From positions 7,587 to 71,586 of IMG/VR virus record IMGVR_UViG_3300032007_000075: a DNA stretch of 64,000 bases; one strand, given 5' to 3'. Position numbers and translations under genes: made by a program. Source of the DNA: a virus. Taxonomy: Duplodnaviria; Caudoviricetes. Shown here piece after piece: positions 34,348 through 61,568 of this stretch (its first letter is position 1; every line of letters starts with the position of its first letter). Under the pieces are notes generated by a model. The model did not search any database. It had not been told where the DNA came from and saw only the letters and a program-made list of their open reading frames with translations.

Positions 34348-34548
34348 ATGACAGAAATTAAGAAAGGTAATTGTTATATGTGTCTTGAAGATATAAAAGG
34401 ATATGATTCTTTCACAAAAGGAAAGGTATATACAAGTATTTATGATAATGCACTTATAAACGACAATCATATAGAAGTACTAGTGAAGCCAAGTAATTTC
34501 TTTCGTATTGCAACAAAGCAAGAAATTAAAGCACAGAAAGGAGAATAA
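34348..34548 (+). CDS. Hypothetical protein
   Basis: 66 aa, KAQKGE end. Confidence 0.65.
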   Translation: MTEIKKGNCYMCLEDIKGYDSFTKGKVYTSIYDNALINDNHIEVLVKPSNFFRIATKQEIKAQKGE

Positions 34549-34550
34549 GT

Positions 34551-34724
34551 ATGACAGACAAATTAGAATTAAAGAGCAGCCATGAGGTTATAGATACCGT
34601 AAGTGTTGCAGATGTAGATAGTATCTTTCAAGGCAAGCCAACAGACCCAGACATTCTAACTGTGGTTATGAAAGGTGGAAGAAGGTTATATTGTGACGAG
34701 GTTTGTCCTGTTGACTCCTTATAA
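34551..34724 (+). CDS. Small hypothetical protein (57 aa)
   Basis: Hand-translated MTDKLELKSSHEVIDTVSV... Confidence 0.55.
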   Translation: MTDKLELKSSHEVIDTVSVADVDSIFQGKPTDPDILTVVMKGGRRLYCDEVCPVDSL

Positions 34725-34759
34725 GAAGAGTCTGTAAATAACATAAAAAGGAACAAGAT

Positions 34760-35221
34760 ATGGCAATTATCAACGTAACAAAGAAGAATTTCTCGAAGCT
34801 GGTCTCAGAGAAGATCGACGATTTGGGAATTGGTGGTATGTTTGCATCGGCCCTCATGGGTGGTAAGGACAAACTAAAGGAGGCGATGGCGGATATGCCC
34901 GACGAGCAACTGCTATGGGTAAATACCGACCACGTGGTGGCGGTGTCGGACATGACGAAGATTGCAGAGACGGGCGACCTCGTGTTCCGCATCTTCTTCA
35001 AGTACACCACCAGCAAGGACGAAGCCATCTGGATCAAGGGCGACGATTACAAGCGGTTCATCCTAGCGTGGGCTGGCGAGGTGAAGTATATCAATGAGGG
35101 CGAGTACGAGGTGCCCAGCGGCTACCGCGCCGTGGTCAGCGAGGACGGCAGCAAGGTGACGGTCAAGAAGAATGAGTACACTGTTGAAAACGACCAAAAT
35201 ACTGACACGGGCAAAATGTAG
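34760..35221 (+). CDS. Hypothetical protein
   Basis: 153 aa. Confidence 0.7.
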   Translation: MAIINVTKKNFSKLVSEKIDDLGIGGMFASALMGGKDKLKEAMADMPDEQLLWVNTDHVVAVSDMTKIAETGDLVFRIFFKYTTSKDEAIWIKGDDYKRFILAWAGEVKYINEGEYEVPSGYRAVVSEDGSKVTVKKNEYTVENDQNTDTGKM

Positions 35222-45945: not shown

Positions 45946-46500
45946 TTACTGACCGCAACCGCAGCCTGGGCAGTTGCAAGGCTGAGGAGCCGAGTACAGG
46001 CTGACGGGAGTCGGGTTGAGCGAGGCGCGACCAGTCACGAAGTCGGAGTAGGTCTGCGTCATCACACTGTTGACAGCGCTCAGTTCAGCAGCCTGCTGTG
46101 CAGTGAGAGACGACTGCTGGCTACCACTCACGGTGTCGGTGACAGTCTGGGTAATAGTCTGGTCGCCATTGATGCGCTCTGCACGCTCGGCGGCAAACAG
46201 GCTGGTCAGTTGGTCGAGCTGACGCTGTGTGGCGCCGTTCTGCAGGGCAGCAATCTCCTTGGCGGCGATGGCAACCTCCTTGGCCTCCTTGCCCTTGGCG
46301 TTGGCGAACAATCCGCCGAACAGCCATGCAGTTACGCCGGCGGTCACACCGACAACACCAGTTACCAATCCTGCCACAGCCACACCGCCAGTGTGACTCT
46401 TGGCCGTCAGGTGATCGAGCTTCACCTGCTCATAAGGCGACAGTTCGCTGCCTCCGTTCATCGACTTCAGCAAAGCGAGGTCATTAACATCTAAAGCCAT
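45946..46500 (-). CDS. Hypothetical protein with a TM segment, coiled coil and Cys/Gly tail (PCNCPGCGCGQ)
   Basis: 184 aa; first gene of the 43-46.5 kb cluster. Confidence 0.8.
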   Translation of the reverse strand: MALDVNDLALLKSMNGGSELSPYEQVKLDHLTAKSHTGGVAVAGLVTGVVGVTAGVTAWLFGGLFANAKGKEAKEVAIAAKEIAALQNGATQRQLDQLTSLFAAERAERINGDQTITQTVTDTVSGSQQSSLTAQQAAELSAVNSVMTQTYSDFVTGRASLNPTPVSLYSAPQPCNCPGCGCGQ

Positions 46501-46645
46501 AATACAATAGTTTTGTGTTGTTATTAAATTGAATTTTGGTGGTAGCGGGATTGCTCCCGTCCGTCGGCAAAATTCGGAATTAATCAGCGGAATCGCAAGA
46601 AAACAGAAGTCACTTTAGGCTCAAAAATCAAGCCTAAAACCACTT

Positions 46646-46680
46646 CGTCCCAAATCGTTTTTATGTCGATTATATCTTTG
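46646..46680 (+). promoter_or_regulatory. Phage-type promoter CGTCCCA-N20-TATCTTTG
   Basis: Same motif on the plus strand, upstream of the structured leader and 46909 ORF. Confidence 0.6.
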
Positions 46681-46908
46681 CCTACAACTCGGGCAAACCG
46701 ATGCAAACTAACATCGTTGAACCCTTTAAAATATAAGGAAAGGAAACATGATGATTACATAGCAAAGAAACAGGGGCTTGCCTTGCCGGAATCAAGACTT
46801 GCCCCTTCAGTCTGCGACCTCCTTTCGCTGTTTCGTCCATTGGACGGCGTATCTACAAGGAGGCTCGCAGACCTTTGGTGTTAGCAAACATTAGACTTTG
46901 CAAAGCGT

Positions 46909-47187
46909 TTGCTTCAAACATGCTGCAAAGTTAACCAAAAGATTCATACAATGGACACTATTTTCGACCATATTGAACTTTTTGAGGCATTTTTGGCTGC
47001 TCTCAAGCGCAATAAGGTCTCTGTCGGCGATGTGAAATATTTCCCAGCCTATCGGGAATACCTTCAGAGACGTTTCGTTGACAAGGACTTATATTACACC
47101 TGCGTTGATGAGATAGCCAAGAAATACAGCTTGAAGCCTGGCACGTTCAGGACCAAGATCAAGCGGTTCTCGTCAGAGTTCAAATAA
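46909..47187 (+). CDS. Small putative DNA-binding protein (C-terminal HTH-like)
   Basis: CVDEIAKKYSLKPGTFRTKIKRF; likely start MDTIF near 46950. Confidence 0.55.
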   Translation: MLQTCCKVNQKIHTMDTIFDHIELFEAFLAALKRNKVSVGDVKYFPAYREYLQRRFVDKDLYYTCVDEIAKKYSLKPGTFRTKIKRFSSEFK

Positions 47188-47272
47188 TGAGCCCGCTGCT
47201 TAACAAAGTTTAGCAGTCAGAGAGATTTTTGCATCGTTTTTGCCCGAGTTTTGTATTAAAATATCAAAACCG

Positions 47273-47304
47273 TTTGTCGTTATCAAAAATAAATAGTATC
47301 TTTG
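47273..47304 (+). promoter_or_regulatory. Canonical Bacteroidetes promoter for the recombinase (TTTG-N20-TATCTTTG)
   Basis: -33 TTTG at 47273 and -7 TATCTTTG at 47297. Confidence 0.7.
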
Positions 47305-47394
47305 CGCCGAAAATCTCCTTGATGGAGGTTTATGTCTTTATCTTCTACTAATTATTATCTTATTATTGATTTATAATCTTAAATTTAATCTGAA

Positions 47395-48585
47395 ATGCCT
47401 TTAAAAATCGACTCAAAAATCAGGTATCGTCTGTGCTACAATTACGGCAACAGACTGAACGCTGACGGACGCTCATCGGTGGCCGTCGAAGCACGTAAGA
47501 ACGGGAAAAGGATATACTTCTCTACCCAAGTCATGCTCTATCCTAATCAATGGCATCGTGGCCGCGTCGTCAACCACGACAACTCAGACAAACTGACCGT
47601 CTGGCTGGTCCATTGGATGCACGAAATTGAGGAAATTGAACTCGATGCACTACTCCACGGTCAGCCGATGTCGCTTCTGCAGTTGAAGCAGGCAGTGAAG
47701 TCAGGCGCCAAACCATCGGCCACCATCGAAGAATTTGTCGAGGCGGTCATCGACACGAGTACGCGCAAACCCCAAACCAAGTCGTCTTATCATACCCTGG
47801 CCCGCGAAGCCGAGAAGTTTGATAAGCAAATCCGCATGGACACCATCACGCACGACTGGATCGAGCGTTGGAGGACCGATATGACCAACAGCGGACTGTC
47901 GGATAACACCATCAAAGGCCGCCTAAAACAACTCCATTGTCTCACACAGGAGGCCATCAAACGCGACATACTGGTGTCGAACCCGTTCAAATGGATTACC
48001 ATAGGCAATATGACGCCGAAACAGGAGTTTCTGACTAAGACAGAACTGCGAAAGATTGAACGAGCCAGACTGACTGGCAAGGAGGCAAAGGTGCGCGACC
48101 TGTTCCTACTCGGGGTCTATACGGGTCTCAGATGGAGCGACCTGACCACGCTCGACGAAGCCGACATCAGCGGTGGTATCATCCGCAAACGGATGTATAA
48201 GACGCAGCGCGATGTGACTATCCCGATTAAGACACTCTTCTGGGGGAAAGGTCAGGAAATCATCGACCGCTACCAACCGATCACACGACTCTGCAAATGC
48301 GTGAAGTGCAATTCGACGGGCAACCGTATCATCCAGACCATCGCCGAACGTATCGGCATCAAACAGCGCGTACACTTCCACCTGGCCCGCAAGACCTGCT
48401 CGACGATGCTCAACGCTATGGGCCTGCCAACGAACGATATCACCACCATCCTCGGACACGCCAAAATGGAAACTACTCAGAAATACTACATCTTTGGAAA
48501 AGAAGAGTCGCTCATCAAATCGTCGAAAAAACTGTTTAAACAACAAAAGGAATCGCCCGATGAAACGGGCACGGAATCTACATAG
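47395..48585 (+). CDS. Tyrosine recombinase (Bacteroidales Int type); candidate shufflon invertase
   Basis: N-terminal arm-binding domain, SAM-like core, catalytic GLRWSD (R), HLARKT (HxxR), LGHAK (H), QKYY (Y); abuts the cassette array. Confidence 0.92.
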   Translation: MPLKIDSKIRYRLCYNYGNRLNADGRSSVAVEARKNGKRIYFSTQVMLYPNQWHRGRVVNHDNSDKLTVWLVHWMHEIEEIELDALLHGQPMSLLQLKQAVKSGAKPSATIEEFVEAVIDTSTRKPQTKSSYHTLAREAEKFDKQIRMDTITHDWIERWRTDMTNSGLSDNTIKGRLKQLHCLTQEAIKRDILVSNPFKWITIGNMTPKQEFLTKTELRKIERARLTGKEAKVRDLFLLGVYTGLRWSDLTTLDEADISGGIIRKRMYKTQRDVTIPIKTLFWGKGQEIIDRYQPITRLCKCVKCNSTGNRIIQTIAERIGIKQRVHFHLARKTCSTMLNAMGLPTNDITTILGHAKMETTQKYYIFGKEESLIKSSKKLFKQQKESPDETGTEST

Positions 48586-48645
48586 TCTTAACTACGCCCA
48601 TAATACACTTTTAACTAAGAGTGTCTTATAGTCTTAGTACAAACT

Positions 48646-48791
48646 GTGAACTACCCCGCAGCTAAAGACTGCGTGGCTTCGGGTCATGATGGACCTTCGC
48701 TTTTCCTGCTTCTGCGCAACGCTGCTTCTTAGGATGCACAGGGCAGCGGTCGTCCACAGGAGGTTGCTTCGCAGGCTTGACTTTCTGGGCG
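48646..48791 (-). mobile_element. IS200/IS605 tnpB 3' end/right-end (omegaRNA-like) remnant
   Basis: Minus strand encodes KVKPAKQPPVDDR...AEAGK and ends GAAGCCACGCAGTCTTTAGCTGCGGGGTAGTTCAC, a typical tnpB right-end pattern; no RuvC motifs upstream. Confidence 0.65.
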
Positions 48792-49057
48792 GGGTGATTT
48801 TGGAAGATAAAGGAACACTTGTAGATGGTAGGACCTTTACAATAGCCAAAAGAAGCGGACAAGGTACAGCTGGAGCTTACGTTATAAGAGCATCTTATGA
48901 TACGTGTTGCATCGTGTTTTGCCAAGAAAGTGAATGTGAAAAGATAGGTATTCATAACCCGTCTAGGTTTGATTTTGGCTCATCAGGAGGAGATTTGATT
49001 ATTACAGAAAAGGCAACTACTCCTGGGGTACGTTTATTTGTAGGAGCAATCTATTAA
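48785..49057 (+). other. Silent tip cassette 1 (LGGVILEDKGTLVDG...)
   Basis: Starts at CTGGGCG 48785, open to stop. Confidence 0.85.
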
Positions 49058-49065
49058 ATTACCTT

Positions 49066-49281
49066 CTGGGCGTTGGTAAATACTATGGAATAGAATCATC
49101 GGAGTATAATAGAGAGCATGATACATGGTATGCTGCCCAGGTGCCAAACTACCCTGCGCCATATATGAAAGTGTTCAATTTAACAGGAGGGGATGGGTGC
49201 AAAATTGCAATAGATACAAATGGTAATTTTTATTCAAAGTTTGACGCTTCTTCTGCTTGGGTAAAAATAGCAAAAACATAA
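49066..49281 (+). other. Silent tip cassette 2 (LGVGKYYGIESSEY...WVKIAKT)
   Basis: Hand-translated; ends at terminator 49284-49310. Confidence 0.9.
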
Positions 49282-49308
49282 TAAAAAGGTGGGAATCAAC
49301 CCCACCTT

Positions 49309-49593
49309 TTATGAATAAATTGTATGCCATACAGTCCATGTACCACCATAACATAATCTCTCATAATTCCGACCATATCCTGAAAGCAATGTTTGTTTCA
49401 CCATCAACAAAGTTCCATCAGTTGGCATCTTATAGATTGTATTATCAACGATTATGGCACCTGTTGAAGTACCGCTCGGCAAATTTGTAATTGTTGTCCA
49501 TTGTAAGTTTGCAAAATACCTCTTTTCTTCTTTTAAATTATCCAGATCTGTATTGTTGTCCAACTGAGTCATCTTTTGATCTGATACGCCCAG
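49309..49593 (-). other. Silent tip cassette 3 (LGVSDQKMTQLD...WTVWHTIYS)
   Basis: Core 49587-49593; knob-like W..W end. Confidence 0.9.
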
Positions 49594-49614
49594 AGAATAA
49601 GATGGCATAATCTT

Positions 49615-49791
49615 CTGGGCGATCAATTAAGTTTGCCGGATGTATATCTTTCATCAGGATGGTTATATATAAGGGCAAAAGATAGCGGCAATGATGGTTT
49701 TAGTTTTGCTTACAATTCGACAACAAATAGATTGCTATTGCAAGACAACAAAACATCAGCTATGTGGGAAATTCAAAAGACGGCCGTATAA
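49615..49791 (+). other. Silent tip cassette 4 (LGDQLSLPDVY...WEIQKTAV)
   Basis: Hand-translated. Confidence 0.85.
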
Positions 49792-49818
49792 GCCGTCTTT
49801 TTATGTCAGCGATACTTT

Positions 49819-50001
49819 CTGGGCGTTGGAGGAATGTCAAGTGCGACATATTCAATAAATGACGAGAATTGCATAGGTGTTCAATTCTATACTTCAGATG
49901 GTGGATGGGCAGACTTAGCAATTTCTTTTAATACTGGATATTTATATTATAGAGATTATGTACATTTCAACTGGAAGCGTGTAGAAGGAGTTGGAATATA
50001 A
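49819..50001 (+). other. Silent tip cassette 5 (LGVGGMSSATY...WKRVEGVGI)
   Basis: Hand-translated. Confidence 0.85.
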
Positions 50002-50013
50002 AGGTTGGTTCTT

Positions 50014-50244
50014 CTGGGCGTTGTCAAGGAAATCCAAAATCCTTCAAATATTTATGATGGATACTCTACCCCTGGTACTTATTGGCTTAGCGGTGATTAT
50101 ATAGAGGTCTTTAGAAACTCGGACACATTAAGAGTTATTCAAAGAGTAACACAAACATCTTCTGCTGGAGGAACCGGAGCATGTTGGTTTAGAGTACTTG
50201 TTGGTAACACATGGTCAAAACCAAGGCTACTCACTCTAACATAA
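50014..50244 (+). other. Silent tip cassette 6 (LGVVKEIQNPS...WSKPRLLTLT)
   Basis: Track ORF 50005-50244. Confidence 0.9.
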
Positions 50245-50297
50245 CAATTAAAGGAGGATTTTGGTCCTCCTTTTTAATCAACTTATTATACTAATAC

Positions 50298-50552
50298 TTA
50301 TTTTTGAAACCACCCATACCAAGTTCCATTATGATTTATCCTAAAACCGCTTTCTCCAGTAAGTGATAATGCTCTTTGAATTAATTCAGTGCCGTTTTCT
50401 ATCACCAATATACTAGCTGTTGAAGTAGAAGGAATAAATGATGGCATATTTGAAGGATGCATTTGTGAATATGCAGTATAAGAACCAGCGGTTAATATAT
50501 TATTCAAATTATCGTTTGGGGCGAGATCTCTTACATGCCTTAATCCGCCCAG
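50298..50552 (-). other. Silent tip cassette 7 (LGGLRHVRDLAPNDNLN...WYGWFQK)
   Basis: Knob-like N.L...G.Y and W..W motifs. Confidence 0.9.
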
Positions 50553-50575
50553 AAGATTAATCCGCATGTTATTCT

Positions 50576-50794
50576 CTGGGCGGATGGAATTATTTGGGAC
50601 GCCAATATATAACAGCTCTGTCTCAGATATCCAGTTCGATTGTTGCCGAAGCCAATAGTTCTTCAATAGAAGGACAGCCTGTAGCTTGGGCTTCTTATGT
50701 TCGAGTTCCAAATACATTGTTAGACATAGCTTTTAGAGAAGATACTGGTGCAATATATATGAGGGTTAATGGGAGAGCATGGAAAGAAATATAA
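50576..50794 (+). other. Silent tip cassette 8 (LGGWNYLGRQY...AWKEI)
   Basis: In frame with track ORF 50594-50794. Confidence 0.9.
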
Positions 50795-50820
50795 GAAGGT
50801 GGAGCGTAGTACTCCACCTT

Positions 50821-51039
50821 TTATAATGTCTTTATGACAGACCATTTCCCTGTACCGGTGGTTCGTTGTTCGATTGCCAAATCACCACCCCAAGAGAATC
50901 TAAGCCTATACCCATTTCCATTAACATTATACAGTGTCAAATATAGTGTACCTCCGTCTGGGGATAGGAACAAACCATTCCCTAACGTGTCTTCTCCGCT
51001 ACTCAGTTTCTTGACCTTTACTGTACCAGCTGCGCCCAG
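50821..51039 (-). other. Silent tip cassette 9 (LGAAGTVKVKK...KWSVIKTL)
   Basis: Hand-translated, 72 aa. Confidence 0.9.
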
Positions 51040-51060
51040 AAGATTATGCCATCTTATTCT

Positions 51061-51369
51061 CTGGGCGGAGTTTCCTCCAGATTACTAAAAGGAATAAGCG
51101 GGAATATAACTACAACTTCGGTGCTTGGATCAGATAGAAGATTTGTTACATTCAATCTTTTAAAAAACAAAAATGGCATTATTATCCTAAAGATTGATAA
51201 TGGATTTTCTGTGTATTCATTTACAGCAGACAATGGCGCTTCTCCCCTGTTTGGTGAAGGAGACACATCCAAAGCAAGTATAGGATATTATGCTGGAAAC
51301 TGGATTGCGGTAGTGTATGGAACTACGGACAAAACTATAGAATACAAATTAATGTACTATGACGAATAA
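51061..51369 (+). other. Silent tip cassette 10 (LGGVSSRLLKG...LMYYDE)
   Basis: Track ORF 51046-51369. Confidence 0.9.
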
Positions 51370-51419
51370 AAAGGTGGAGCATTTAACTCCACCTCTTTTA
51401 TGTCAACTATATAGCTTTC

Positions 51420-51602
51420 CTGGGCGTAATAGTAGAACAAAAAATTAACGATTCAGATATGCCCACACCTTATGGTGTATTAACCACGTTAAAAGGCACG
51501 ACCTATTGTAATCAACTATTTGGAAATGCCTCAGACTCTCGTTTTTTTATAAGAAATTCGTTAAATGGAGGAAGTAGTTATAGTAATTGGAGAGAAATAT
51601 AA
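51420..51602 (+). other. Silent tip cassette 11 (LGVIVEQKIND...SNWREI)
   Basis: Hand-translated; core preceded by TTC. Confidence 0.85.
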
Positions 51603-51629
51603 ATAGAGGTGGGTTAAAGCCCACCTCCT

Positions 51630-51860
51630 TTATTTGTCAACCCATGAACCGTTTACAAGTGTTCCAAGTTTTCCATTCGCTGCTATTTTTAATCTGGCCC
51701 CTCTGCCTACAATGAGAAGGCCGTCTGCTTGAAATGCTGAGCCATTGTTAGTAGTGCCTGAAACCAAATATATACCCATCTCTGTGACTGTGGTCTGATC
51801 ATTTATATTAGAAGAGTTCATACCACCTTTTATGACGAAGAATGGAGAAAGAGCGCCCAG
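51630..51860 (-). other. Silent tip cassette 12 (LGALSPFFVIK...SWVDK)
   Basis: Track ORF 51630-51890; degenerate flank. Confidence 0.85.
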
Positions 51861-51929
51861 GTGTGTGGCGAGCATTGAAAAGTGCTTCATATATTAATAA
51901 AGAGAGGTGATCAACCACCTCTTTATTTA

Positions 51930-52097
51930 TCAAGTCCTCTTTGTCACACTAATATCATAAATACCTCCAGGCGTTTGAAAAAAGAACCCGTTACCGTTAT
52001 CATATCCAACATAAAAGGTTTTTACTCCAAAGTCATTAGTATGGATGTATGAGAAACTACCACTTGCACTTGTTTTCGCACAATTGTTAACGCCCAG
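51930..52097 (-). other. Silent tip cassette 13 (LGVNNCAKTSA...VTKRT)
   Basis: Hand-translated, 55 aa. Confidence 0.85.
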
Positions 52098-52119
52098 AGA
52101 ATACATGTGAATTAATCTT

Positions 52120-52293
52120 CTGGGCGATCCTTTGAAGATTTATGTTCATTCCACAATGCACTCAGGCAAGAGTTTCTGGGTAATTACATTGGGTGATTCC
52201 ATGAGACGGTCACTTGCTATAAGTATAAGTGATCAGGATGTTTATCATGTCAATGGTGGAGGTAGTGATGCAGATACATGGACAAAACTATAA
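52120..52293 (+). other. Silent tip cassette 14 (LGDPLKIYVHS...TWTKL)
   Basis: Hand-translated. Confidence 0.85.
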
Positions 52294-52323
52294 AGATATA
52301 GGTGGAGCTTAGTACTCCACCTT

Positions 52324-52542
52324 TTAAAGTTCTTTCCATGCAGTCCATGAATTGTCATTGCTACGCCTATACCTGATTCCACCTGAGTAACCAAACAGTT
52401 GAATTATGAATGCCGTTGAATTGAAAGTGACCAATACTCCATATTTTTCTTCAGATGATAACAGAAGAGTATAAATGCCACTTTGCTTTAAAGCCTCTGC
52501 ATTAGGATTATCATATTGACCTCTATACCTAAAAACGCCCAG
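52324..52542 (-). other. Silent tip cassette 15 (LGVFRYRGQYD...WTAWKEL)
   Basis: Hand-translated; knob-like. Confidence 0.9.
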
Positions 52543-52587
52543 TAGCTGTGTAGAAAGTAAAAAGGTGGAGTGCTAAGCTCCACCTCT

Positions 52588-52860
52588 TTAAATCTCTTTC
52601 CATGCTGACCAACCTTCTGTACCTGATACTGTAGAATATCGCCTAATATAAGTTTTTCCATCATATCCACTTGTGATTGTTTGTTTTGTAATATAGTTAC
52701 CTGATAGATAATAAGATTCAACATCAAGTAAAAATGGATATGCACTTGCACCCCACGGTGTGTTTGTATAAGATCCATACCCACAATATCTTGCTTCTTT
52801 TAGCGGTACATCATTCAAATCTGCTATTCCTCCAAAATTTTTTCTCCAAGATTCGCCCAG
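52588..52860 (-). other. Silent tip cassette 16 (LGESWRKNFGGIADLN...WSAWKEI)
   Basis: Track ORF 52588-52869; knob-like. Confidence 0.9.
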
Positions 52861-52882
52861 AGAATACATGTGAATTAATCTT

Positions 52883-53188
52883 CTGGGCGGAAAGGATCAT
52901 CCTATAGTAACATTTTACGACGTAAACTTGGGGGATGGCTATTCAAGTAATGATGTACTTAAAAAAATAGCTACTGAATATCCAAACATAAACCCAAACC
53001 TACAAAGAGTTTTTATTGGAAGATTTGTGTTAGGTACGTCAGGGTTTTATATTCTGCATAGTTATGGTGGAACACCGGTTAATGACTATTATTCATATTG
53101 CACAGGAATAATGATTGGTCTTAACGTAAGATATATTTTTGGAACAACCGGTGGAACACCCTATAGAAATACAATAAATGTAACATAA
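52883..53188 (+). other. Silent tip cassette 17 (LGGKDHPIVTF...RNTINVT)
   Basis: In frame with track ORF 52928-53188. Confidence 0.9.
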
Positions 53189-53216
53189 TAAAAGGAGGGT
53201 CACCCCTCCTTTATAT

Positions 53217-53459
53217 TTATTCTGGTCCAGCTATAGTCACCCATGCTTGAGGCGTATGTCTAACTTCTCTTACTCGGATAATTCCACCCCAGAGGAACGA
53301 AAAATTCCATCCATAACCATTTGGGTTATATAGAATCACATAGAACGTTCCACCATCATTTGAAAGATATAAGCCCGGATTTTGAAAAACAGACTGAGAA
53401 TCTTCTGTTTCTTCTGAAGTCATTTTTCTGAATTTAATTGTTGGGTGGTTTGCGCCCAG
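53217..53459 (-). other. Silent tip cassette 18 (LGANHPTIKFR...WVTIAGPE)
   Basis: Track ORF 53217-53519. Confidence 0.9.
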
Positions 53460-53481
53460 AGAATACATGTGAATTAATCTT

Positions 53482-53766
53482 CTGGGCGAAACAACAACAA
53501 CTGCTTTCAACTTTGACAATCCTCCTCTAGGCTTTCATTGTATTAGTATAGCTCAACCAAATCTTGGTTTGTATGGTACAGCTCCATCTAATTTGGTTAC
53601 TGGTGGTTGGAAAGCAGCTTGTTTAATTATTAGCTCTAAGCAGTACGATAATTCTAATACAACAGGGATTCAGATAATATATAACTACAATTCATCTACC
53701 TTGAAGAAATTCCATAGAATGTATAATCCAGATAATAGTTCATGGGGATCGTGGACTGAAGAGTAA
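53482..53766 (+). other. Silent tip cassette 19 (LGETTTTAFNFD...WGSWTEE)
   Basis: In frame with track ORF 53569-53766. Confidence 0.9.
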
Positions 53767-53829
53767 AAAACAAGGATGATTTAAAATAAAATAAGGTGGG
53801 AGGCGATCAAAAGACTACCTCCCATTTAT

Positions 53830-54147
53830 TTATTTGCTCAAAATGAAAATTCCTCTTGCATTTGAGATTGAGCTGTTGAATACAATATTTCCTTCGCTTG
53901 AGACACTAAAAGAGGTGGATGCAGTAGCGTTGCCACCTTGACTCTTAACAATATTAACCACTGTAATATGATTACCACTATAGCCACATCTTATCATGTC
54001 TATTTGAGAGTAAGTAGCATCTTCAGAGCTTTGGTTTGCTGACGTTAAAGCTAATATCGTTCTACCACTTTGCCAGCCGTTTGCACTAATACCAGTATCT
54101 CCAACTATTATAGATATCACTCTTCCTGAAATAGCCCCAACGCCCAG
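53830..54147 (-). other. Silent tip cassette 20 (LGVGAISGRVI...IFILSK)
   Basis: Track ORF 53830-54162. Confidence 0.9.
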
Positions 54148-54168
54148 AGAATAAGATGGCATAATCTT

Positions 54169-54444
54169 CTGGGCGCATTGGTTCTAACAAGCCAAACAAA
54201 TTTGGATACCATGCCAGAATTTTCGGTTTGTATAGCAAAGCAACCGTCTCTATCAGGAACTTTTCCAAGTAATCTCCCAAGTGGAGGTAATAATGTTAGA
54301 GTTGTTGTAGTAACATACTGCAATTCTGGAAATGGCTTTCAAGAGTATATTGCTACACATGAAAATGGAGTAACGAAATGGCACAGGTCAAAGTACAACA
54401 GTGCATGGAAAAGCTGGACTCTTGAATACAAAACTCAAAACTGA
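54169..54444 (+). other. Silent tip cassette 21 (LGALVLTSQTNLD...WKSWTLEYKTQN)
   Basis: In frame with track ORF 54178-54444; knob-like. Confidence 0.9.
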
Positions 54445-54482
54445 AAAAGTTAATAAATAAAGGTGGGCTAATAACCCACCTT

Positions 54483-54734
54483 TTATATTTGATTCCACGT
54501 TGTTGCCCAAACACTATTATTTTTCCCTCGCCAATAGAGTTTTTCTTCACTATGAACATAACCAAACTGCCATGCCCAAGGTAAGTTAGATGAATTAGGA
54601 CTTCCTATAGTTAATACCCATCCAGCGCTGGGTGATGGGGCGTTTGTGGAATTAGCGTTATAATAGCAGACCTTATTCAATAATCCATCATTACAGTTGC
54701 TTATCGTGCCTCCATGCCACAGGTCTACGCCCAG
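54483..54734 (-). other. Silent tip cassette 22 (LGVDLWHGGTISNCN...WATTWNQI)
   Basis: In frame with track ORF 54483-54680; knob-like. Confidence 0.9.
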
Positions 54735-54754
54735 AGAATATATGGCACAATCTT

Positions 54755-55024
54755 CTGGGCGTATGGAAGTGGTGTGGATCAGTTAGAGATGCAAAATATA
54801 ATAGTGACATGAACAACTTGACAACTCCTGGATACTATTATTATGATTCCGTTCAAAATATTAGTCACGCTCCATCTCACAGTGTAACACATGCAGGAGT
54901 CGTATTAGTATTCAGAATGGTTGGTTATACTAATAGTGTCATCCAGCTTGCTATTACAATAGAAGGCACAATAGAAATTTCAGGTCGTTATGAAGTCACA
55001 GGAACATGGAATAAGTTAGCGTAA
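54755..55024 (+). other. Silent tip cassette 23 (LGVWKWCGSV...DMNNLTTPGYY...WNKLA)
   Basis: In frame with track ORF 54809-55024; knob-like. Confidence 0.9.
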
Positions 55025-55045
55025 AAGGTGGGCTAATACCCACCT

Positions 55046-55243
55046 TTATACTTGTTTCCATGTCATTGTTTCAATAGAAGCACCATATCCAACTGCTCTA
55101 TATCCATCATTAGCTCCGGCTATACCTACAAATCTATTTGAAACATCAAAAGGGCTAAATATTATTGCTGCTCCGTAGCTATGACCTGCAAAAGGAGTGG
55201 GAATACCTTCTGTACTCCATGTCAACGTTTGTTTTACGCCCAG
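55046..55243 (-). other. Silent tip cassette 24 (LGVKQTLTWST...TWKQV)
   Basis: Hand-translated, 65 aa. Confidence 0.85.
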
Positions 55244-55256
55244 AACTCTGAATCTA

Positions 55257-55469
55257 TTATGGCGCTATTTGAGTAGTTGTATTTGTTATTGCATTATGCC
55301 AATGCATTGAACCATCATAATGTGCTTCAAGATTTCCAACTTCTCCAGAATTATTTTCAAAAACAATACACGCACTATTTGATGCAGTGCTTCTATGTAT
55401 TGTTAATGTTTGATAATCAGAACTTCTTAGTTTCCAATTATTATCAAAACTTGAGGCAGCAACGCCCAG
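55257..55469 (-). other. Silent tip cassette 25 (LGVAASSFDNN...TQIAP)
   Basis: Hand-translated, 70 aa. Confidence 0.85.
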
Positions 55470-55491
55470 GGAATATGTGGTATGTTATTCT

Positions 55492-55716
55492 CTGGGCGGA
55501 GAGCATGTATTTGTAGAAAGTAGATTTAATAGAGACAACTCAATTCCTGATATGCCATCTGGTTATGGATACTTATTAGAGTGCGCTCCAATAGGTACGG
55601 GGCCTAAACTATGGGCATATTTTTCTTTAAATAATCCTGGAGACAAGTGGGAGCACCTATATACAAGATATATTGATTCAGGTGGCACGCCTATGAGTTG
55701 GACTATGCTTGTATAG
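55492..55716 (+). other. Silent tip cassette 26 (LGGEHVFVESR...SWTMLV)
   Basis: Track ORF 55477-55716. Confidence 0.9.
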
Positions 55717-55742
55717 ATATAAAGGTGGGTTTAGCCCACCTT

Positions 55743-56009
55743 TTAAACTTTAAACCACGATGACCATGTGCTGTTCTTTGATCTTACAAACACCTCTGTC
55801 TTCCCTCCTGTTGCCTCTGAGCAAAATATAACCTGAACACCTCTTGATGTACTTGAAACAAAAGTCAACAACAGAAAAATCGTACTCCAATCACCTGCAG
55901 AAAGTGTTGGTACGTTTCCTGAAAGATTTGGGAATTGACCTGTCACAAATCCGTTTCCAAAGCTGTCGATACTTGTGGATGTCGATATATATTGTAAGCC
56001 TACGCCCAG
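55743..56009 (-). other. Silent tip cassette 27 (LGVGLQYISTS...WSSWFKV)
   Basis: Track ORF 55743-56093; knob-like. Confidence 0.9.
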
Positions 56010-56028
56010 AAGATTAGTTTCGCATTCT

Positions 56029-56289
56029 CTGGGCGCATTTAGATTCATTGATACTACTACAGAGACAATTAGTATAGACGATATAACTAGCATTGGAATT
56101 TATGGAAACATTGGCGGAAATATATCAAACGCCCCTGCTGGAAGTAGTTATGGAAGTCTTTTGGTTTTCGACGCAAAGTATCTACCCTTTCAGTTCTATG
56201 TAGATGTTTATCAAAATAAAACGGATTTGTATTTTAGAACAAAAGTTGGTGCTCCACCATCGTGGTCTACTTGGGTAAAACTAAACTAA
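56029..56289 (+). other. Silent tip cassette 28 (LGAFRFIDTTT...WSTWVKLN)
   Basis: Track ORF 55975-56289; knob-like. Confidence 0.9.
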
Positions 56290-56317
56290 AAAGGAGGGGT
56301 GACCCTCCTTTTTATTA

Positions 56318-56599
56318 TTATGAAAGTGCTTTCCAAGCTAGCCAGTTAACTCCATTGCTAACAGAAACCCTTGAATAAATTTTTGTACCAGTCACTCCAC
56401 TTGGCATTAACCATTGGACTAAAAATGTTCCTGCTCTAAGTACAACTACTAATGAGCCTGCATTATTATAATCTATATCTGAAGGTTTATTGGCGATCAT
56501 TAAAGTATTCCAGCAGTCATACATGCCAGGTTCAATCATGGTATTATAGTCGTTGCCACTTGCTTCGTGCTTCAAATATAGATTACCAACTCCGCCCAG
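56318..56599 (-). other. Silent tip cassette 29 (LGGVGNLYLKH...DYNTMIEPGMY...WLAWKALS)
   Basis: Track ORF 56318-56743; strongly knob-like. Confidence 0.9.
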
Positions 56600-56621
56600 A
56601 GAATAACATACCACATATTCC

Positions 56622-56885
56622 CTGGGCGTGAGTATTGTTTCTATTTCAAACTTAAATACTGACTTTGATGGTTTGATGATTGGTATGGGGCTTGACGGAT
56701 CTGGAGAGGCAACAAATGGTTGCGGAGTACCAGGAACATACATTCATTTCAGAGCTGGCAAAAACAACTGGGATAAAACTGTTCAAGTACAGATTTTCTT
56801 TGGTAACAAGAATACGGCAGCCACCGTGAAGAAATTCAGAACACAATGGACTTCTGCGGGATGGAGTTCGTGGGCTGACTTGTAA
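56622..56885 (+). other. Silent tip cassette 30 (LGVSIVSISNLN...WSSWADL)
   Basis: In frame with track ORF 56628-56885; knob-like. Confidence 0.9.
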
Positions 56886-56918
56886 TTATAAAAGGTGGAG
56901 TACTAAGCTCCACCTTCT

Positions 56919-57494
56919 TTAAATAATCTTATTCCACGCATCAGAATCTATACGTTTAGAATATATATAATGAGTCGCTCCAGATGCGGTATTTGTTGAA
57001 ATCAACAGCGTTGAAAAATTGACAGCATCATATCTATTTCTTATGATAATTGCTGATCCAGATATGCCAGATGGGGCGTCTGAAGCATTTTGAATATATC
57101 CTGTAACAAATGCCCCCTCTCCAAAAGTTGAGATGGCTACATTGTCTTTTCTTCCATTTTCTTTCATAAACCATCCGCCCAGAACTGATGCGAGGTTCGC
57201 AGGGGTGATAGATCCGAGATCGTGGTTGGCGTCGGTGGCGAGGACGCGGGAGATGGCGGTACCTTTGTCAAGATTGTCTACCAATGCGCCGAATGCCGAG
57301 CGGACAGCCTCGTCGATGTACGCCTTGATGGCGGTGTTGAATCCGTCGTCATCGCCATTGACGAGCAGGAACTTCAGGTTGGCGATAGCCGATGCGCCAG
57401 CGACTGCTGAGCGCTCCTTCAACTGACGGTCCTTATAGTACACGTTCACACCTCCAACGGAATTGTGATCAGAAAATTGTCTATTGTCTGCCAT
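56919..57494 (-). CDS. Expressed tail-fibre tip/adhesin: 104-aa constant region plus variable cassette 31 (57182-56919)
   Basis: Has a real start (MADNRQFS); junction ...ANLASV|LG at GTTCTGGGCG 57185-57176; last gene of the minus-strand fibre cluster. Confidence 0.9.
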   Translation of the reverse strand: MADNRQFSDHNSVGGVNVYYKDRQLKERSAVAGASAIANLKFLLVNGDDDGFNTAIKAYIDEAVRSAFGALVDNLDKGTAISRVLATDANHDLGSITPANLASVLGGWFMKENGRKDNVAISTFGEGAFVTGYIQNASDAPSGISGSAIIIRNRYDAVNFSTLLISTNTASGATHYIYSKRIDSDAWNKII

Positions 57495-57600
57495 AATTTG
57501 TTTCCTTTCTATTCTTTATGGCAGCGGCGACACTCCTGTCAACCGCTGCAAAGTTAATGATAAATTTCCGATTTCTCTTGTTTTTGATTCTTAAAAGATG

Positions 57601-58200
57601 TTATTCAACCTCATTCCATCCTGCGAGTGAGGCGATGGGGCGCACGCAGAGTTCGTCGCTCTGACCCATCCACATGGCGAACCGTCCGTCGGCCATCGAC
57701 ATGTGCCAGGGATAGTCGTTGGAGAACATCTGTGAGGTCCAGTAGGGCAGGTCCTCGCTCAGCGGGTCGCCACCGACGGCCTCCAGCAGCGCGTTCACCT
57801 CCTGCTTGTGGGCGAAGATGAGTGCCATCTCGCCGCCTGCTGGCAACCATCCGAACGCCTTCGATGCGACAGCGGCACCGTCGGTCAGTTCATAGTGCGC
57901 GATGATGAAGTCGGTGCGCTGCTCACCGTCGAAGTCGGTCATCGACGATGTGATGTCGCGGCGCTTGTCGCCCTCGGGCACGTCCTGCGACTCTCCGCCG
58001 TAGTTGAGCAACTGCTCGGCAAGGGCGATGAGCATCTCGTGCTCGCCGTCCTTGATGGCGATGCCGTTGACGGTGTAACCACTCTCGTAACCCTCCATCG
58101 AGGGGACGAGAATCTTCTGTTTGCCCCGATTCTTTGTCAGGGCGATGAGTACCTTGGCGCCCGTGGGCTGCTCCTGTACGTTCAATGTTTCTTCTGCCAT
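57601..58200 (-). CDS. DUF1566/C-type-lectin-fold-like protein (putative adhesin)
   Basis: WLPAGGEM...YWTSQ...W.M...DG......CVRPI pattern. Confidence 0.7.
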   Translation of the reverse strand: MAEETLNVQEQPTGAKVLIALTKNRGKQKILVPSMEGYESGYTVNGIAIKDGEHEMLIALAEQLLNYGGESQDVPEGDKRRDITSSMTDFDGEQRTDFIIAHYELTDGAAVASKAFGWLPAGGEMALIFAHKQEVNALLEAVGGDPLSEDLPYWTSQMFSNDYPWHMSMADGRFAMWMGQSDELCVRPIASLAGWNEVE

Positions 58201-58228
58201 AGTTTTATCGTTTTTGTTGTTATTCTGA

Positions 58229-58738
58229 TTAGTGGAAAATCATACCTTCAGTGGTTGGATCGTACTCCACGCGACTTGTATCTGCTGGGAACACCATGCA
58301 CTCGTTCACGGGGTCGTAGTAGATGGCGAGTTTCGAGTCGACCTCGGCCTTGGTGTAGGCGTTGGCGAGTTCGCCGACGATATCAAACTGCGTGCCGTTG
58401 TAGCGCAGCATCACCTTCATGCCAGCACCGATCATGTTGGCGGCCAGGGCGGCACCTTTATAGTAGATGGGCTTGGCGGCGAGGGTCGCGGTGGAGCCAG
58501 ATGCGCCGTAGGTGACGGCGAGGGTGGCCGATGCGACGGTGATGGCGTTCTGGAAGGTGACGAGCAGCGTGGCGCCGGCGACGGGCGAGAACGTCGTGCC
58601 GACGGTGACTTCCTTGGCGGCGGTGGCGGCGGCGGTGGTGCAGGTACCCTCCGAGCCGATGCCCTTGTTGTGGATGACCTTGCCGAATGCCTGCATGTCC
58701 TCCACGTTCACGGTTTTCTTTTTCTCTTGTTCTGTCAT
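58229..58738 (-). CDS. Tail-fibre-associated protein
   Basis: GTCTTAAATAAKEV...GATLLVTF...AKPIYY.G...YNGTQF fibre domain. Confidence 0.7.
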   Translation of the reverse strand: MTEQEKKKTVNVEDMQAFGKVIHNKGIGSEGTCTTAAATAAKEVTVGTTFSPVAGATLLVTFQNAITVASATLAVTYGASGSTATLAAKPIYYKGAALAANMIGAGMKVMLRYNGTQFDIVGELANAYTKAEVDSKLAIYYDPVNECMVFPADTSRVEYDPTTEGMIFH

Positions 58739-58957: not shown

Positions 58958-59926
58958 TTAAGCGAAGATGCTGTCGATGTCAGAGTCGGAGCACTCCAGC
59001 AGGCCGTCGAGCTTCTCCTTGTCGGTGGCGAGCATCAGGCCGTTTGTGCCGCCCGTGCCGGAGGTAGAGGCAGACACGTTGGGAACGGTCTTCTTGTGGA
59101 CGGAGATCTCACCGTTCTGGTCCTGCGTCACGCTGTCGACGAAGGTGGTGTCGTTGCCGCTGGTGGTGGCGTCGCTGTCGGCCACTGCCGTCTGCTTGGT
59201 CTTGTAGTCGCTGTGCTTGTGACCAGAGTCAACGGGGTTGCCGTTGGCGTCGAAGGCAGCGAAGTTACCCTCCACGGCGTCGGCGTCGACGATAGCCAGG
59301 TCGGTGGCTGCGATGCCGGAGTCGATGGGATTACCGTTGGCGTCGAACTTGGCGATGTTGCCAGTCACGGCGTCGGTGTCCTTGTCGGCCTTACCGCTGA
59401 TGTCCTGGTGAGCAACGAGAACCTGCTGAGAGAGACCTGACTTCAGAGTGATGTTCTTCTTGGTGCTGTCACCAGAAACATCCTCGATAGCCATCTCACT
59501 CTTCAGGGCGTAGCCGGAGAGGTCATACATACCCTGGAAGATGTCGTACTTGTAGACGGGCTCAGCGGCTGTGCCTACGTTTGCCACGTAGATGTTGGCT
59601 CCTGCAGGGATGCTCTTGCCAGCACCCTCTGCGAAGTCAGCGGTGGTCGTGAAGGCGTCGCTGATGTTCCACATGAAGCCGAGGTTAGCGGCTGCAAGGT
59701 CAGTGGACGGAGCGAGCTGCGAGAACGTGCGAGTTCCCTTTGGTATGATGGCAGAAGGGATAGCCTGAATCTTGCCGAGCAACTCAGCCAGAGCGGCCTC
59801 TACTGTTTCTGCACTAAGACCTGTGATGGCGGTGATGGCCTGGGTCTGATACTTGGCAGCGAGCTTGGTCTCAAAGCGCTGCAAACGTTGTACGCTAACG
59901 TACTTGGTTGGATTTGTAATTGCCAT
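58958..59926 (-). CDS. Tail fibre/whisker-like protein with two DA..GN.A.FDANGNP.DSG repeats
   Basis: 322 aa; ends SDIDSIFA. Confidence 0.75.
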   Translation of the reverse strand: MAITNPTKYVSVQRLQRFETKLAAKYQTQAITAITGLSAETVEAALAELLGKIQAIPSAIIPKGTRTFSQLAPSTDLAAANLGFMWNISDAFTTTADFAEGAGKSIPAGANIYVANVGTAAEPVYKYDIFQGMYDLSGYALKSEMAIEDVSGDSTKKNITLKSGLSQQVLVAHQDISGKADKDTDAVTGNIAKFDANGNPIDSGIAATDLAIVDADAVEGNFAAFDANGNPVDSGHKHSDYKTKQTAVADSDATTSGNDTTFVDSVTQDQNGEISVHKKTVPNVSASTSGTGGTNGLMLATDKEKLDGLLECSDSDIDSIFA

Positions 59927-60091
59927 AGTGGTAAAACAAATTTAAATTAAACATTTAGTTAACTATAGTTGGATTTTGATCCGTTGTCTTGTGTTGATAT
60001 TTCATATCGAGCCTGCTCACGCTCGGACATTGATGCGAGCATCATGTCTCTCGCTTACTCGCAGCCTGGGATTTTTGATGTTGGTGTTGGG

Positions 60092-60442
60092 TTACTTTTT
60101 GGGCTTCTTTTTCGGTGGCTTTGCGGCGGGTTTCGGTGGCTGCGGAGAGCCTTGCGCCTCGTCGAAGTCCGGGGCTGGCTGTGTAGTCTTCTTCGATGGC
60201 TTCTCAGCCTTTTTGTTCGGCTCCACCCGCATCGTGACGAACAGCCCGCCGCTGGCGTCCTGCATCAGCAGCTTCGACTGGCCCGTCTCGCGGCAGTAGT
60301 CGTTGAAAAACTCCGTAAACATCGTCATAATCTCCTCGGCAGTCACCTTGTGCGCATCGGCACTCAGCGAGCCGTCCTTCTTTTCGCGCCCGGCATAGAA
60401 GCCGTCGTCGCGCCGGTAAAGTTCAATTCCTTTCTGTTTCAT
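60092..60442 (-). CDS. Hypothetical protein with a Lys/Pro-rich tail
   Basis: 116 aa. Confidence 0.7.
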   Translation of the reverse strand: MKQKGIELYRRDDGFYAGREKKDGSLSADAHKVTAEEIMTMFTEFFNDYCRETGQSKLLMQDASGGLFVTMRVEPNKKAEKPSKKTTQPAPDFDEAQGSPQPPKPAAKPPKKKPKK

Positions 60443-60454
60443 AATTATATCGCC

Positions 60455-60754
60455 TTATGGTTTATTGAAAATGCTGTCGATGTCGCCGTCGCCCGCCTCG
60501 ATGTCCGGGTCGAGGTCTTCCTGATGCACGCCGCCGTCCTTGATCTCGTCAGTACCGACGGAATCCTTCGGAATGTCGATGGAAGAGCCCTCGGGGAAGC
60601 GGATGACCAGGTGGCGCTTGCCGACGATGGCACCCACGAGCAGGTTCGCGCCGTCCACCGTCTTATAGTAGTACCGCTGGTTGCCCTCCTGGATGGAGTC
60701 GAGCCCCTTAAAATCCTCGGGCAGGTAACTTGGATATTTGTCTGTCGTTGTCAT
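60455..60754 (-). CDS. Hypothetical fibre-associated protein (ends DIDSIFNKP)
   Basis: 99 aa. Confidence 0.7.
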   Translation of the reverse strand: MTTTDKYPSYLPEDFKGLDSIQEGNQRYYYKTVDGANLLVGAIVGKRHLVIRFPEGSSIDIPKDSVGTDEIKDGGVHQEDLDPDIEAGDGDIDSIFNKP

Positions 60755-60791
60755 ATTGATTTACGATTTACGGATTTACGATTTACGATTT

Positions 60792-61568
60792 TCAGTCGCC
60801 TTCCTCCTCTTGCATCGGGTCGTTGAAACCGCCCGAGCCGCCGGTCTGGACGTCAGGCTCGAAAATGCTGTCGATGTCGGCGTCGCTCGCCTCGTTCTCC
60901 TCCTGACTCTCGTCGATTTCCTTCTGGATCTTCTGCGGGATGGTCTCGTCGTCACTGATGCCCTGTGCGGCATCGAACATCTCAGGGATGGTGTCAATCT
61001 CACCGTTCGGGTCACGGCCCTCCCACTTCTTCAGGAACTCCTCGCCCGTCATCTTCATCTTTACTTTTCCCATATCTTCTACAATGTCTGATAATTGATT
61101 GCTGAACTGGATTCGCTTGCCATCGCTGGTATAGACGTAGTTGCCGTCGCAGTCGGCCAGATAGTCCTCGCCGTCGACGCTGACGTCCCACACCTGCTCG
61201 TACTCCACGGGGTGCCCCTCGCAGGAGTGCTGCTTGTGCGACGTCTGACAGTCCTCGATGCCCACGAACAGCGGCTGACGGTCGGTCCACACGCGGCGCT
61301 GCTTGTCGTAGTCCTCGTCCTCGTAGGCCCCGATGAACACGGCGGTGTGCTCGCCCGCCTTCACGTTCTCAAGTGCAAAGTACCACCGCGCCTCGCTGTC
61401 GTAGAAGCAGTCGTTCTTCCCAATGCGGGCCACGACGCGGCCATACGAGTTCTTGACGATAATCTCAAACCAATCCCTCGCCAGGTTGAAGTCCTCCTTC
61501 GAGGCCGTCACCCTGAACTTGCCGTCCGTGCCGACTGGTAATTGTGGTATGTATCTTGGTTCTGCCAT
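60792..61568 (-). CDS. Hypothetical baseplate/fibre-associated protein (ADIDSIF near the C-terminus)
   Basis: 258 aa, after promoter 61593-61627. Confidence 0.75.
   Translation of the reverse strand: MAEPRYIPQLPVGTDGKFRVTASKEDFNLARDWFEIIVKNSYGRVVARIGKNDCFYDSEARWYFALENVKAGEHTAVFIGAYEDEDYDKQRRVWTDRQPLFVGIEDCQTSHKQHSCEGHPVEYEQVWDVSVDGEDYLADCDGNYVYTSDGKRIQFSNQLSDIVEDMGKVKMKMTGEEFLKKWEGRDPNGEIDTIPEMFDAAQGISDDETIPQKIQKEIDESQEENEASDADIDSIFEPDVQTGGSGGFNDPMQEEEGD

Follow-up and report, generated by a model that had tools for sequence, protein, structure and literature searches.

A 31-cassette array predicted to act as a tail-fibre shufflon in a ruminant gut phage

Changes in phage host range are usually ascribed to mutation, to recombination between phages, to diversity-generating retroelements (DGRs) and to two- to six-way inversion switches. 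Inversions made by Gin (Mu), Cin (P1) and Min (p15B) alter the C-terminal part of the tail fibre and thus the host range; these enzymes are serine invertases that act with an enhancer and Fis, on 2 to about 6 crossover sites. In the R64 shufflon the recombinase Rci acts on asymmetric sfx sites with a 7-bp core, and multiple inversions select one of 7 C-termini of PilV. Here we analyze a 64-kb stretch (the window) of the 71.6-kb IMG/VR virus record IMGVR_UViG_3300032007_000075, in which 31 C-terminal cassettes lie between a tyrosine recombinase gene and the start of a small late gene. We consider it very probable that this locus is a multiple-inversion shufflon that swaps the tail-fibre tip of a small phage protein.

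Besides the R64/IncI1 shufflon (PMC5430464), two phage systems have been described to which the locus comes closest. The Rin shufflon of Bifidobacterium breve and B. longum prophages (Mavrich et al. 2018, PMC6109161) comprises a handful of Rv segments, which resemble the C-terminus of the TP901-1 receptor-binding protein (RBP), an 11-bp rix site, TTCCCTAACCC, and an armless XerD-like recombinase; how deletions between directly oriented sites are avoided was raised there as a question (PMC6109161). In BV01-like phages of Phocaeicola vulgatus, a shufflon of 1.7 kb with three cassettes, six isoforms and a 10-bp motif, TGGGAGAACT, has reads showing all configurations (2026 preprint, PMC13596623). 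On our reading the present locus is of this already known kind, the phage tyrosine-recombinase tail-fibre shufflons represented by Rin and the BV01-like system; it does not appear to be a member of the Rci or Rin family, and it is extreme in size. Our literature search found no description of a phage shufflon with more than a handful of cassettes.

The array, its core site and the expressed gene

The window contains 42 copies of the heptamer CTGGGCG, where 7.7 ± 2.9 are expected, and no shuffled sequence reached 42. Thirty-one of these sites, 16 on the plus strand and 15 on the minus strand, lie in one 8.4-kb block (Table 1) whose guanine-plus-cytosine (GC) content is 38% (0.36-0.39), compared with about 0.50 for the window. 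Every one of the 31 opens an in-frame reading frame that begins with Leu-Gly and runs for 55-105 codons to a stop; these open reading frames (ORFs) do not overlap and tile 90% of the block. With stops at about 6.6% of codons at the block's composition, we estimate the chance of 31 frames open for at least 55 codons at about 1e-51. One core (57176-57182, minus strand) lies inside a 191-amino-acid (aa) ORF, 57494-56919, where the 104-aa N-terminal part ends in ...ANLASV and the core itself begins the LG that follows; GC is 0.55 in the constant part and falls at this point to 0.37, the value of the fused cassette. A preliminary description of this DNA had reported the 31 cores, their strands and their Leu-Gly frames in an AT-rich block, which our recount confirmed, and a single cassette fused to a 104-aa constant region, which is the 191-aa ORF.

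Twenty-two of the 31 sites are paired as 11 head-to-head units (CGCCCAG-N19-23-CTGGGCG), and the tail-to-tail joints carry GC hairpins 3' of the stop codons (repeat family D2). Terminator-like sites number 29 in the array against 8.4 ± 2.3 expected, and the units share exact repeats of 35-40 nt. An Rfam scan of 46000-58500 gave no match.

Codon usage indicates what holds the core constant. Within the cassettes CTG accounts for 7% of the Leu codons and GGC for 12% of the Gly codons, but CTG GGC G stands at every one of the 31 sites; were selection acting on the protein alone, such uniformity would have a probability of about 2e-65. In the array of a related contig, L003, the sequence CTCGGCG, which likewise encodes Leu-Gly, stands at all of at least 11 sites, and the synonymous base is thus uniform inside each array and differs between arrays. 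Because rare codons are invariant at 31 of 31 sites and the L003 variant is equally uniform, the core is, judged by its codons, constrained as DNA beyond its role in the protein. In a logo of the 31 sites the core is preceded by ATYYT; conservation reaches 5 nt beyond the core on its 5' side and ends with the core on its 3' side. The constant side is identical up to the core, the identity on the cassette side begins directly after it, and exchange would therefore take place within the 7 bp or at their edges.

Two further observations concern the composition and the left edge of the array. GC is 34-44% in every cassette, the expressed one included, against about 50-55% in the phage, a difference that could be the mark of a shared mobile cassette pool or of avoidance of core-like GC-rich sequence. 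A segment of about 140 nt (48646-48785), in the interval that separates the recombinase gene from the first core, is present in the source sample at 4-9 times the depth of its surroundings; the contigs that bear it diverge at both ends, the right end being the first base of the core, and the segment has no Rfam match.

Cassette fold, recombinase and relatives

The expressed cassette, the one cassette modelled, gave an AlphaFold2 (AF2) model with pLDDT 81 and pTM 0.71. When this model was compared with 48,161 solved chains, the top match was the R2 pyocin fibre knob (Z 9.5, root-mean-square deviation (rmsd) 2.1 Å, 78 of 87 residues); the 11 best structural matches are all phage fibres or receptor-binding proteins, and the next, unrelated match has Z 4.7. 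The modelled cassette is thus predicted to have the knob beta-sandwich fold of tail fibres and receptor-binding proteins. Foldseek against the PDB gave no match at E <= 0.001, with phage fibres in the top rows; Pfam and NCBIfam returned chance-level matches only for all 31 cassettes, and a profile search of PDB sequences gave nothing significant (6cl6 at E 7.9). A profile of the 31 cassettes found 121 representative proteins, mostly long ones with 2-20 tandem copies of the domain, some of which also carry Phage_fiber_2, GDSL or GDPD domains. In one tandem protein GFGLG stands ahead of each copy, and Leu-Gly therefore appears to be a natural domain boundary.

At the array end opposite the constant region, and pointing into the array, lies the gene of a tyrosine recombinase with a complete catalytic set (R246, K269, H329-x-x-R332, H355, Y364). 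The enzyme is 49% identical to the one beside the L003 array and 40% identical (E 8e-72) to a 304-aa armless enzyme beside a four-cassette array in L020; to the separate integrase of L020 it is unrelated (E 0.2). A face-to-face gene pair in L029, described below, is flanked by a 477-aa tyrosine recombinase that matches the window enzyme in its two core Pfam domains, a likeness at the level of domain typing only. In NCBIfam the window enzyme had no matches other than XerC/D/A and generic invertase ones below threshold. In the 71.6-kb record no other tyrosine recombinase was found, and no serine recombinase (Resolvase, PF00239; controls positive).

Searching with the constant region gave 19 proteins that share it up to ...ANLASVLG and are unrelated beyond; in 18 database proteins its identity is 41-99%, and the conserved part stops at ...SVLG or SVLS. 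Members of one lineage have constant parts that are 90-100% identical and tips that are 14-30% identical: P0002, P0003 and P0004 have one constant region and three different tips, and P0008-P0011, P0013 and P0014 have one constant region and six tips. P0001 has a constant region 99-100% identical to that of the window, and a tip absent from the window's 31. The small arrays of relatives share a junction at which GCATCAGTT runs directly into CTGGGCG. They hold two cassettes each in L024, L025 and L027, four in L023, five in L021, six in L042, and four in L020, where the 304-aa recombinase follows. In L029 (L029:10001-11156) two complete genes stand face to face, each with its own constant region and the same GCATCAGTT and CTGGGCG core, and one inversion there would swap tips between two expressed genes. 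Silent cassettes in one genome resemble expressed tips elsewhere, as seen for L020 against P0008 and P0015, and cassette 16 of the window resembles expressed tips of L035 and L048.

The L003 array (L003:8286-11145) has its cassettes, at least 11, directly after the recombinase and mostly in tandem rather than head to head; the contig ends inside the array. In the sister phages L002, L004, L008, L010, L012 and L014, a DGR occupies the slot between the fibre neighbour, 48-89% identical to the window's, and a 184-aa gene. Besides its reverse transcriptase and template repeat, this DGR has a target of 392 aa whose variable region is C-terminal; in L002 (IMGVR_UViG_3300037454_000334) the DGR lies at L002:12168-15850. 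L009 has shufflon-type genes. The slot looks like an exchange site for host-range diversification modules. For the window itself a DGR reading is not borne out, as no RVT_1 domain was found in its own record.

Rearranged junctions, proposed mechanism and competing explanations

Evidence for switching within the population comes from assembled Logan contigs of runs X1 and X2, which belong to the source sample S1, and of X3, an independent sample; junction frequencies are not derivable from such contigs. In one X1 contig cassette 20 adjoins the unit at 56003-56035 in reverse complement, as an inversion between the cores at 54141 (minus) and 56029 (plus) would produce. Cassette 20 has loose ends at 54152 in X1 and at 54153 in X3, and in X3 it stands beside yet another spacer. 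Most contig breaks fall at units whose shared repeats exceed the assembler word, but two X1/X2 breaks lie 1-2 nt past the plus cores of units with reference-unique spacers. Six 'skip' joints, with sides of 20-33 nt, were not interpretable and were not used, nor were the small shares of the stretch present in runs X5-X16. One junction contig and two graph branches were thus observed, a thin and suggestive indication of ongoing inversion in the source population. In X1 the array bins have depths of 7-20x, the flanks 10-11x, and every bin is covered; since the depth of the array is close to that of its flanks, we argue that all 31 cassettes are carried in one genome.

In the mechanism that we propose, the minus-strand late gene (57494-56919) would supply a 104-aa constant part, behind which an exchangeable C-terminal domain of about 55-105 aa would stand, and CTGGGCG, that is the Leu-Gly codons plus one base, usually after ATYYT, would be the crossover site. 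The recombinase would act on the core of the expressed gene together with one of opposite orientation in the array, the DNA between them would invert, and a different cassette would come to lie in frame behind the constant part. The 16 plus-strand cassettes would be reachable by one inversion; the 14 silent minus-strand cassettes would need a prior flipping inversion, two in all. Each cassette brings its own stop and in most cases a hairpin terminator, and most lack a start codon. Because 16 of the 30 silent cassettes have no possible start, only the fused one would be translated, and a population could display up to 31 tips. We infer that the recombinase at 47395-48585 is the invertase, that crossover falls inside the 7 bp, that inversions proceed without deletions and that the tips alter host range.

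The preliminary description had already proposed this layout, with an intact tyrosine recombinase at the far end of the array, a tail-fibre or adhesin tip, and one inversion for plus and two for minus cassettes. The DNA-fixed core, the relatives that break exactly at ...SVLG and the related recombinases beside other arrays support the layout; Pfam domains and catalytic residues agree with the proposed enzyme, the knob fold of the modelled cassette with the proposed tip, and the number of inversions follows from the orientations.

Several points weigh against this mechanism. With 12 conserved bp the site is short for a tyrosine recombinase. For the alternative junction there is one contig, which a co-occurring strain with a fixed rearrangement could explain. 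The constant region belongs to no protein family and has no confident fold, so that the term tail fibre depends on the fold of the cassette and on the genes nearby. In eight silent cassettes the shared spacer supplies an in-frame ATG 3-5 codons ahead of Leu-Gly (MPSYSLG, MYSLG). The recombinase carries an arm-type DNA-binding domain, as integrases do, whereas Rin and the L020 orthologue are without it. Finally, in the sister phage L002 the corresponding position still holds a recombinase, 82% identical, but there is no array; the 106.9-kb record of L002 has neither a constant-region gene nor a TYTCTGGGCG site, no convincing inverted repeats were found around the enzyme, and downstream of it L002 and the window do not align. 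The neighbouring fibre protein of L002 is 85% identical to the window's. The window recombinase may have another or a second role, for instance in integration, or the L002 copy may be a leftover.

These last two points would suit a real shufflon whose neighbouring recombinase is an integrase or a relic, with inversion left to a different enzyme, whose gene would lie in the ~27% of the genome that is missing or in the host. The GenBank phage proteins nearest to the recombinase, annotated Bacteroides phage integrases at 33% identity, point the same way, as does a record that is only 73% complete by CheckV. We nevertheless judge this explanation unlikely: related recombinases lie directly beside the L003 and L020 arrays, the L020 integrase being a separate and unrelated protein, and one of the same domain type lies beside the L029 pair; no relative of the shufflon gene was found among 185,579 species genomes, which gives no sign of a prophage state; and the 71.6 kb yielded no second tyrosine recombinase or any serine recombinase.

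It is more doubtful still that the array is a static or fossil library, built by recombination at the cores, which would continue between phages over evolutionary time, with no programmed switching inside a population. The heterogeneity within the sample, one contig and two graph branches, could come from co-occurring strains, and the P0001 strain shares the constant region almost exactly but has cassettes that the window lacks. However, 31 perfect cores, 31 open frames and an intact recombinase are not what functionless silent sequence, which would decay, should leave behind, and codon usage shows the core kept at the DNA level.

An assembly artefact, in which strains with a few cassettes each were chained through the shared 35-40-nt units, is very improbable. 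Such exact repeats are indeed common to the units, shufflons are hard to assemble (PMC5430464), and the cassette order of the contig may be one of several. Against this, in two runs the array has the same depth as its single-copy flanks, where about four cassettes per strain would give a several-fold lower value; Logan contigs of both runs cover every bin, and L003 has its long array on an independent contig. That the cassettes are independent small genes for free knob proteins is hardly credible, even though eight have the upstream ATG noted above and gene callers listed some as ORFs (P0027, P0039, P0054, P0060), since in 16 of the 30 silent ones neither ATG, GTG nor TTG occurs from the last in-frame stop up to Leu-Gly, promoter-like sites are not enriched in the array (29 versus 31 expected), and only the fused cassette has a long upstream reading frame conserved in relatives.

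Genomic setting and comparison with known systems

The coordinates of the locus are given in Table 1. For the whole 191-aa protein the AF2 model was not usable (pLDDT 52), the constant part being helical in that poor model, and for the constant region ESM Atlas gave scores below 0.9, with T4 gp9/gp10-type baseplate rows as leads only. The constant part is probably the attachment to the tail or baseplate. In X1 and X2 the depths of the contigs over the constant region (57179-57555) add up to 115-189x, where the remainder of the phage stands at about 10x, and many related phages in the source sample seem to share this gene start. The gene directly upstream keeps its position in relatives, with 195-199-aa homologues in L020, L021, L030 and the P0001 contig, and is probably co-transcribed with the shufflon gene.

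Table 1. Features of the locus, in window coordinates (ORF, open reading frame)
Feature	Position	Strand	Remark
Tyrosine recombinase, 396 aa, presumed invertase	47395-48585	+	Pfam Arm-DNA-bind_5, Phage_int_SAM_5, Phage_integrase
Whole array	48785-57182	both	31 cores, 31 cassettes, 11 head-to-head units, tail-to-tail hairpins
Cassette 1, 90 aa	48785-49057	+	ORF read from core
Cassette 2, 71 aa	49066-49281	+	ORF read from core
Cassette 3, 94 aa	49309-49593	-	ORF read from core
Cassette 4, 58 aa	49615-49791	+	ORF read from core
Cassette 5, 60 aa	49819-50001	+	ORF read from core
Cassette 6, 76 aa	50014-50244	+	ORF read from core
Cassette 7, 84 aa	50298-50552	-	ORF read from core
Cassette 8, 72 aa	50576-50794	+	ORF read from core
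Cassette 9, 72 aa	50821-51039	-	ORF read from core
Cassette 10, 102 aa	51061-51369	+	ORF read from core
Cassette 11, 60 aa	51420-51602	+	ORF read from core
Cassette 12, 76 aa	51630-51860	-	ORF read from core
Cassette 13, 55 aa	51930-52097	-	ORF read from core
Cassette 14, 57 aa	52120-52293	+	ORF read from core
Cassette 15, 72 aa	52324-52542	-	ORF read from core
Cassette 16, 90 aa	52588-52860	-	52-56% identical cassette is the expressed tip in L035, L048
Cassette 17, 101 aa	52883-53188	+	ORF read from core
Cassette 18, 80 aa	53217-53459	-	ORF read from core
Cassette 19, 94 aa	53482-53766	+	ORF read from core
Cassette 20, 105 aa	53830-54147	-	adjoins two other spacers in public contigs
Cassette 21, 91 aa	54169-54444	+	ORF read from core
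Cassette 22, 83 aa	54483-54734	-	ORF read from core
Cassette 23, 89 aa	54755-55024	+	ORF read from core
Cassette 24, 65 aa	55046-55243	-	ORF read from core
Cassette 25, 70 aa	55257-55469	-	ORF read from core
Cassette 26, 74 aa	55492-55716	+	ORF read from core
Cassette 27, 88 aa	55743-56009	-	ORF read from core
Cassette 28, 86 aa	56029-56289	+	ORF read from core
Cassette 29, 93 aa	56318-56599	-	ORF read from core
Cassette 30, 87 aa	56622-56885	+	ORF read from core
Example GC hairpin, AAAGGTGGAG...CTCCACCTTT	56890-56922		after stop of expressed gene, tail-to-tail joint
Cassette 31, now expressed, 87 aa + stop	56919-57182	-	fused at core 57176-57182; GC 0.37, like silent cassettes
Constant N-terminal region, 104 aa (M1-V104)	57183-57494	-	55% GC
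199-aa gene directly upstream of shufflon gene	57601-58200	-	weak match PHROG 4245

The source is a phage with a genome of about 100 kb from the cow gut or rumen, and the public runs that contain the stretch are bovine and other ruminant gut metagenomes. The type of recombinase suggests a host among the Bacteroidota. Genes of the window include those for a tape-measure protein, a protease, helicases and an HNH endonuclease. Neither blastn nor tblastn against 50,697 GenBank phages matched the fibre region or the shufflon gene, a search of IMG/VR found no loci related to the 191-aa protein, and the exact 28-nt junction pattern had no match in JGI metagenomes, in a search from which near-identical records may be missing.

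Elsewhere in the window there are two more AT-rich islands, at 10001-11300 and 33001-35000, of which the first holds an HNH homing-type endonuclease (10123-11235; PHROG 559, E 7e-88). A 539-aa protein (61633-63252, minus strand) has long runs of D-H-[ST]-x-A type repeats and weak PHROG matches to minor head and tail proteins. The acidic motif D-I-D-S-I-F occurs at or near the C-terminus of three structural neighbours of 322, 99 and 258 aa (window 58958-61568), and proteins with this motif are also found at L002:16613-19024; it may be a shared docking motif.

If the proposed mechanism is true, a 31-way, in-frame, self-encoded switch on a 191-aa protein shows how far the shufflon principle scales. 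The locus would also be a compact natural library of small knob receptor-binding domains on one scaffold, of use in the study of receptor recognition on rumen Bacteroidota and in redesigning phage host range in laboratory strains. The DGR in the same slot of sister phages offers a natural comparison of two diversification strategies, and the 7-bp core with its recombinase could join the few shufflon recombinases used in synthetic biology (PMC11852207).

The preliminary description had likened the locus to the R64 Rci/sfx shufflon. The likeness in working stands, as both combine multiple inversions, a tyrosine recombinase, a 7-bp core and the choice of an adhesin C-terminus; membership in the Rci/sfx family is not supported, there being no long conserved arm at the core, only ATYYT 5' of it. 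The R64 target is a plasmid pilus adhesin with 7 C-termini, and here it would be a phage fibre with 31. The claim that the library far exceeds the classical systems in scale likewise finds support, although the closest described ones, Rin and the BV01-like shufflon, had gone unnamed. Gin, Cin and Min differ in the class of enzyme, the record of the window being without a serine recombinase.

Like Rin, the system is phage-encoded, with a constant RBP part, start-less variable ends behind short asymmetric repeats, and a tyrosine recombinase at the far end. Unlike Rin, it has 31 cassettes, a 7-bp core with ATYYT, an arm domain in the enzyme, a pyocin-type knob, and 22 of its 31 sites in 11 head-to-head units. 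With the BV01-like shufflon it has in common a phage of a Bacteroidota lineage and a recombinase next to an invertible region of several cassettes into which the 3' end of a tail-fibre gene extends; it differs in its 31 cassettes over 8.4 kb and in its core, and no sequence relationship was found in 50,697 GenBank phage records. The modelled tip resembles R-type pyocin and phage fibre knobs (6cu2, 6cl6; phi11 RBP 5efv) with Z 9.5 and 9.0, rmsd 2.1 Å and 78-79 of 87 residues, and, as in known fibres, the knob domain also occurs in tandem in long fibre proteins; unlike the pyocin knobs, to which it has no significant sequence similarity, it stands here as a single knob at the end of a 191-aa protein.

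What appears to be new, compared with these systems, is the scale of 31 cassettes, the head-to-head double-site units, the placing of knob cassettes on a protein of 191 aa, and the way in which the array alternates with the DGR of sister phages. We lean, by a small measure, towards a fuller interpretation, in which this is the largest programmed-inversion library described, a working 31-way switch of a receptor-binding tip that is made up of head-to-head double sites and driven by an integrase-like, arm-bearing recombinase, in which shuffling and the targeted hypermutation of DGRs are interchangeable modules that let phages follow variable host surfaces in the rumen, and the cassette pool is shared and exchanged among many co-resident rumen phages.

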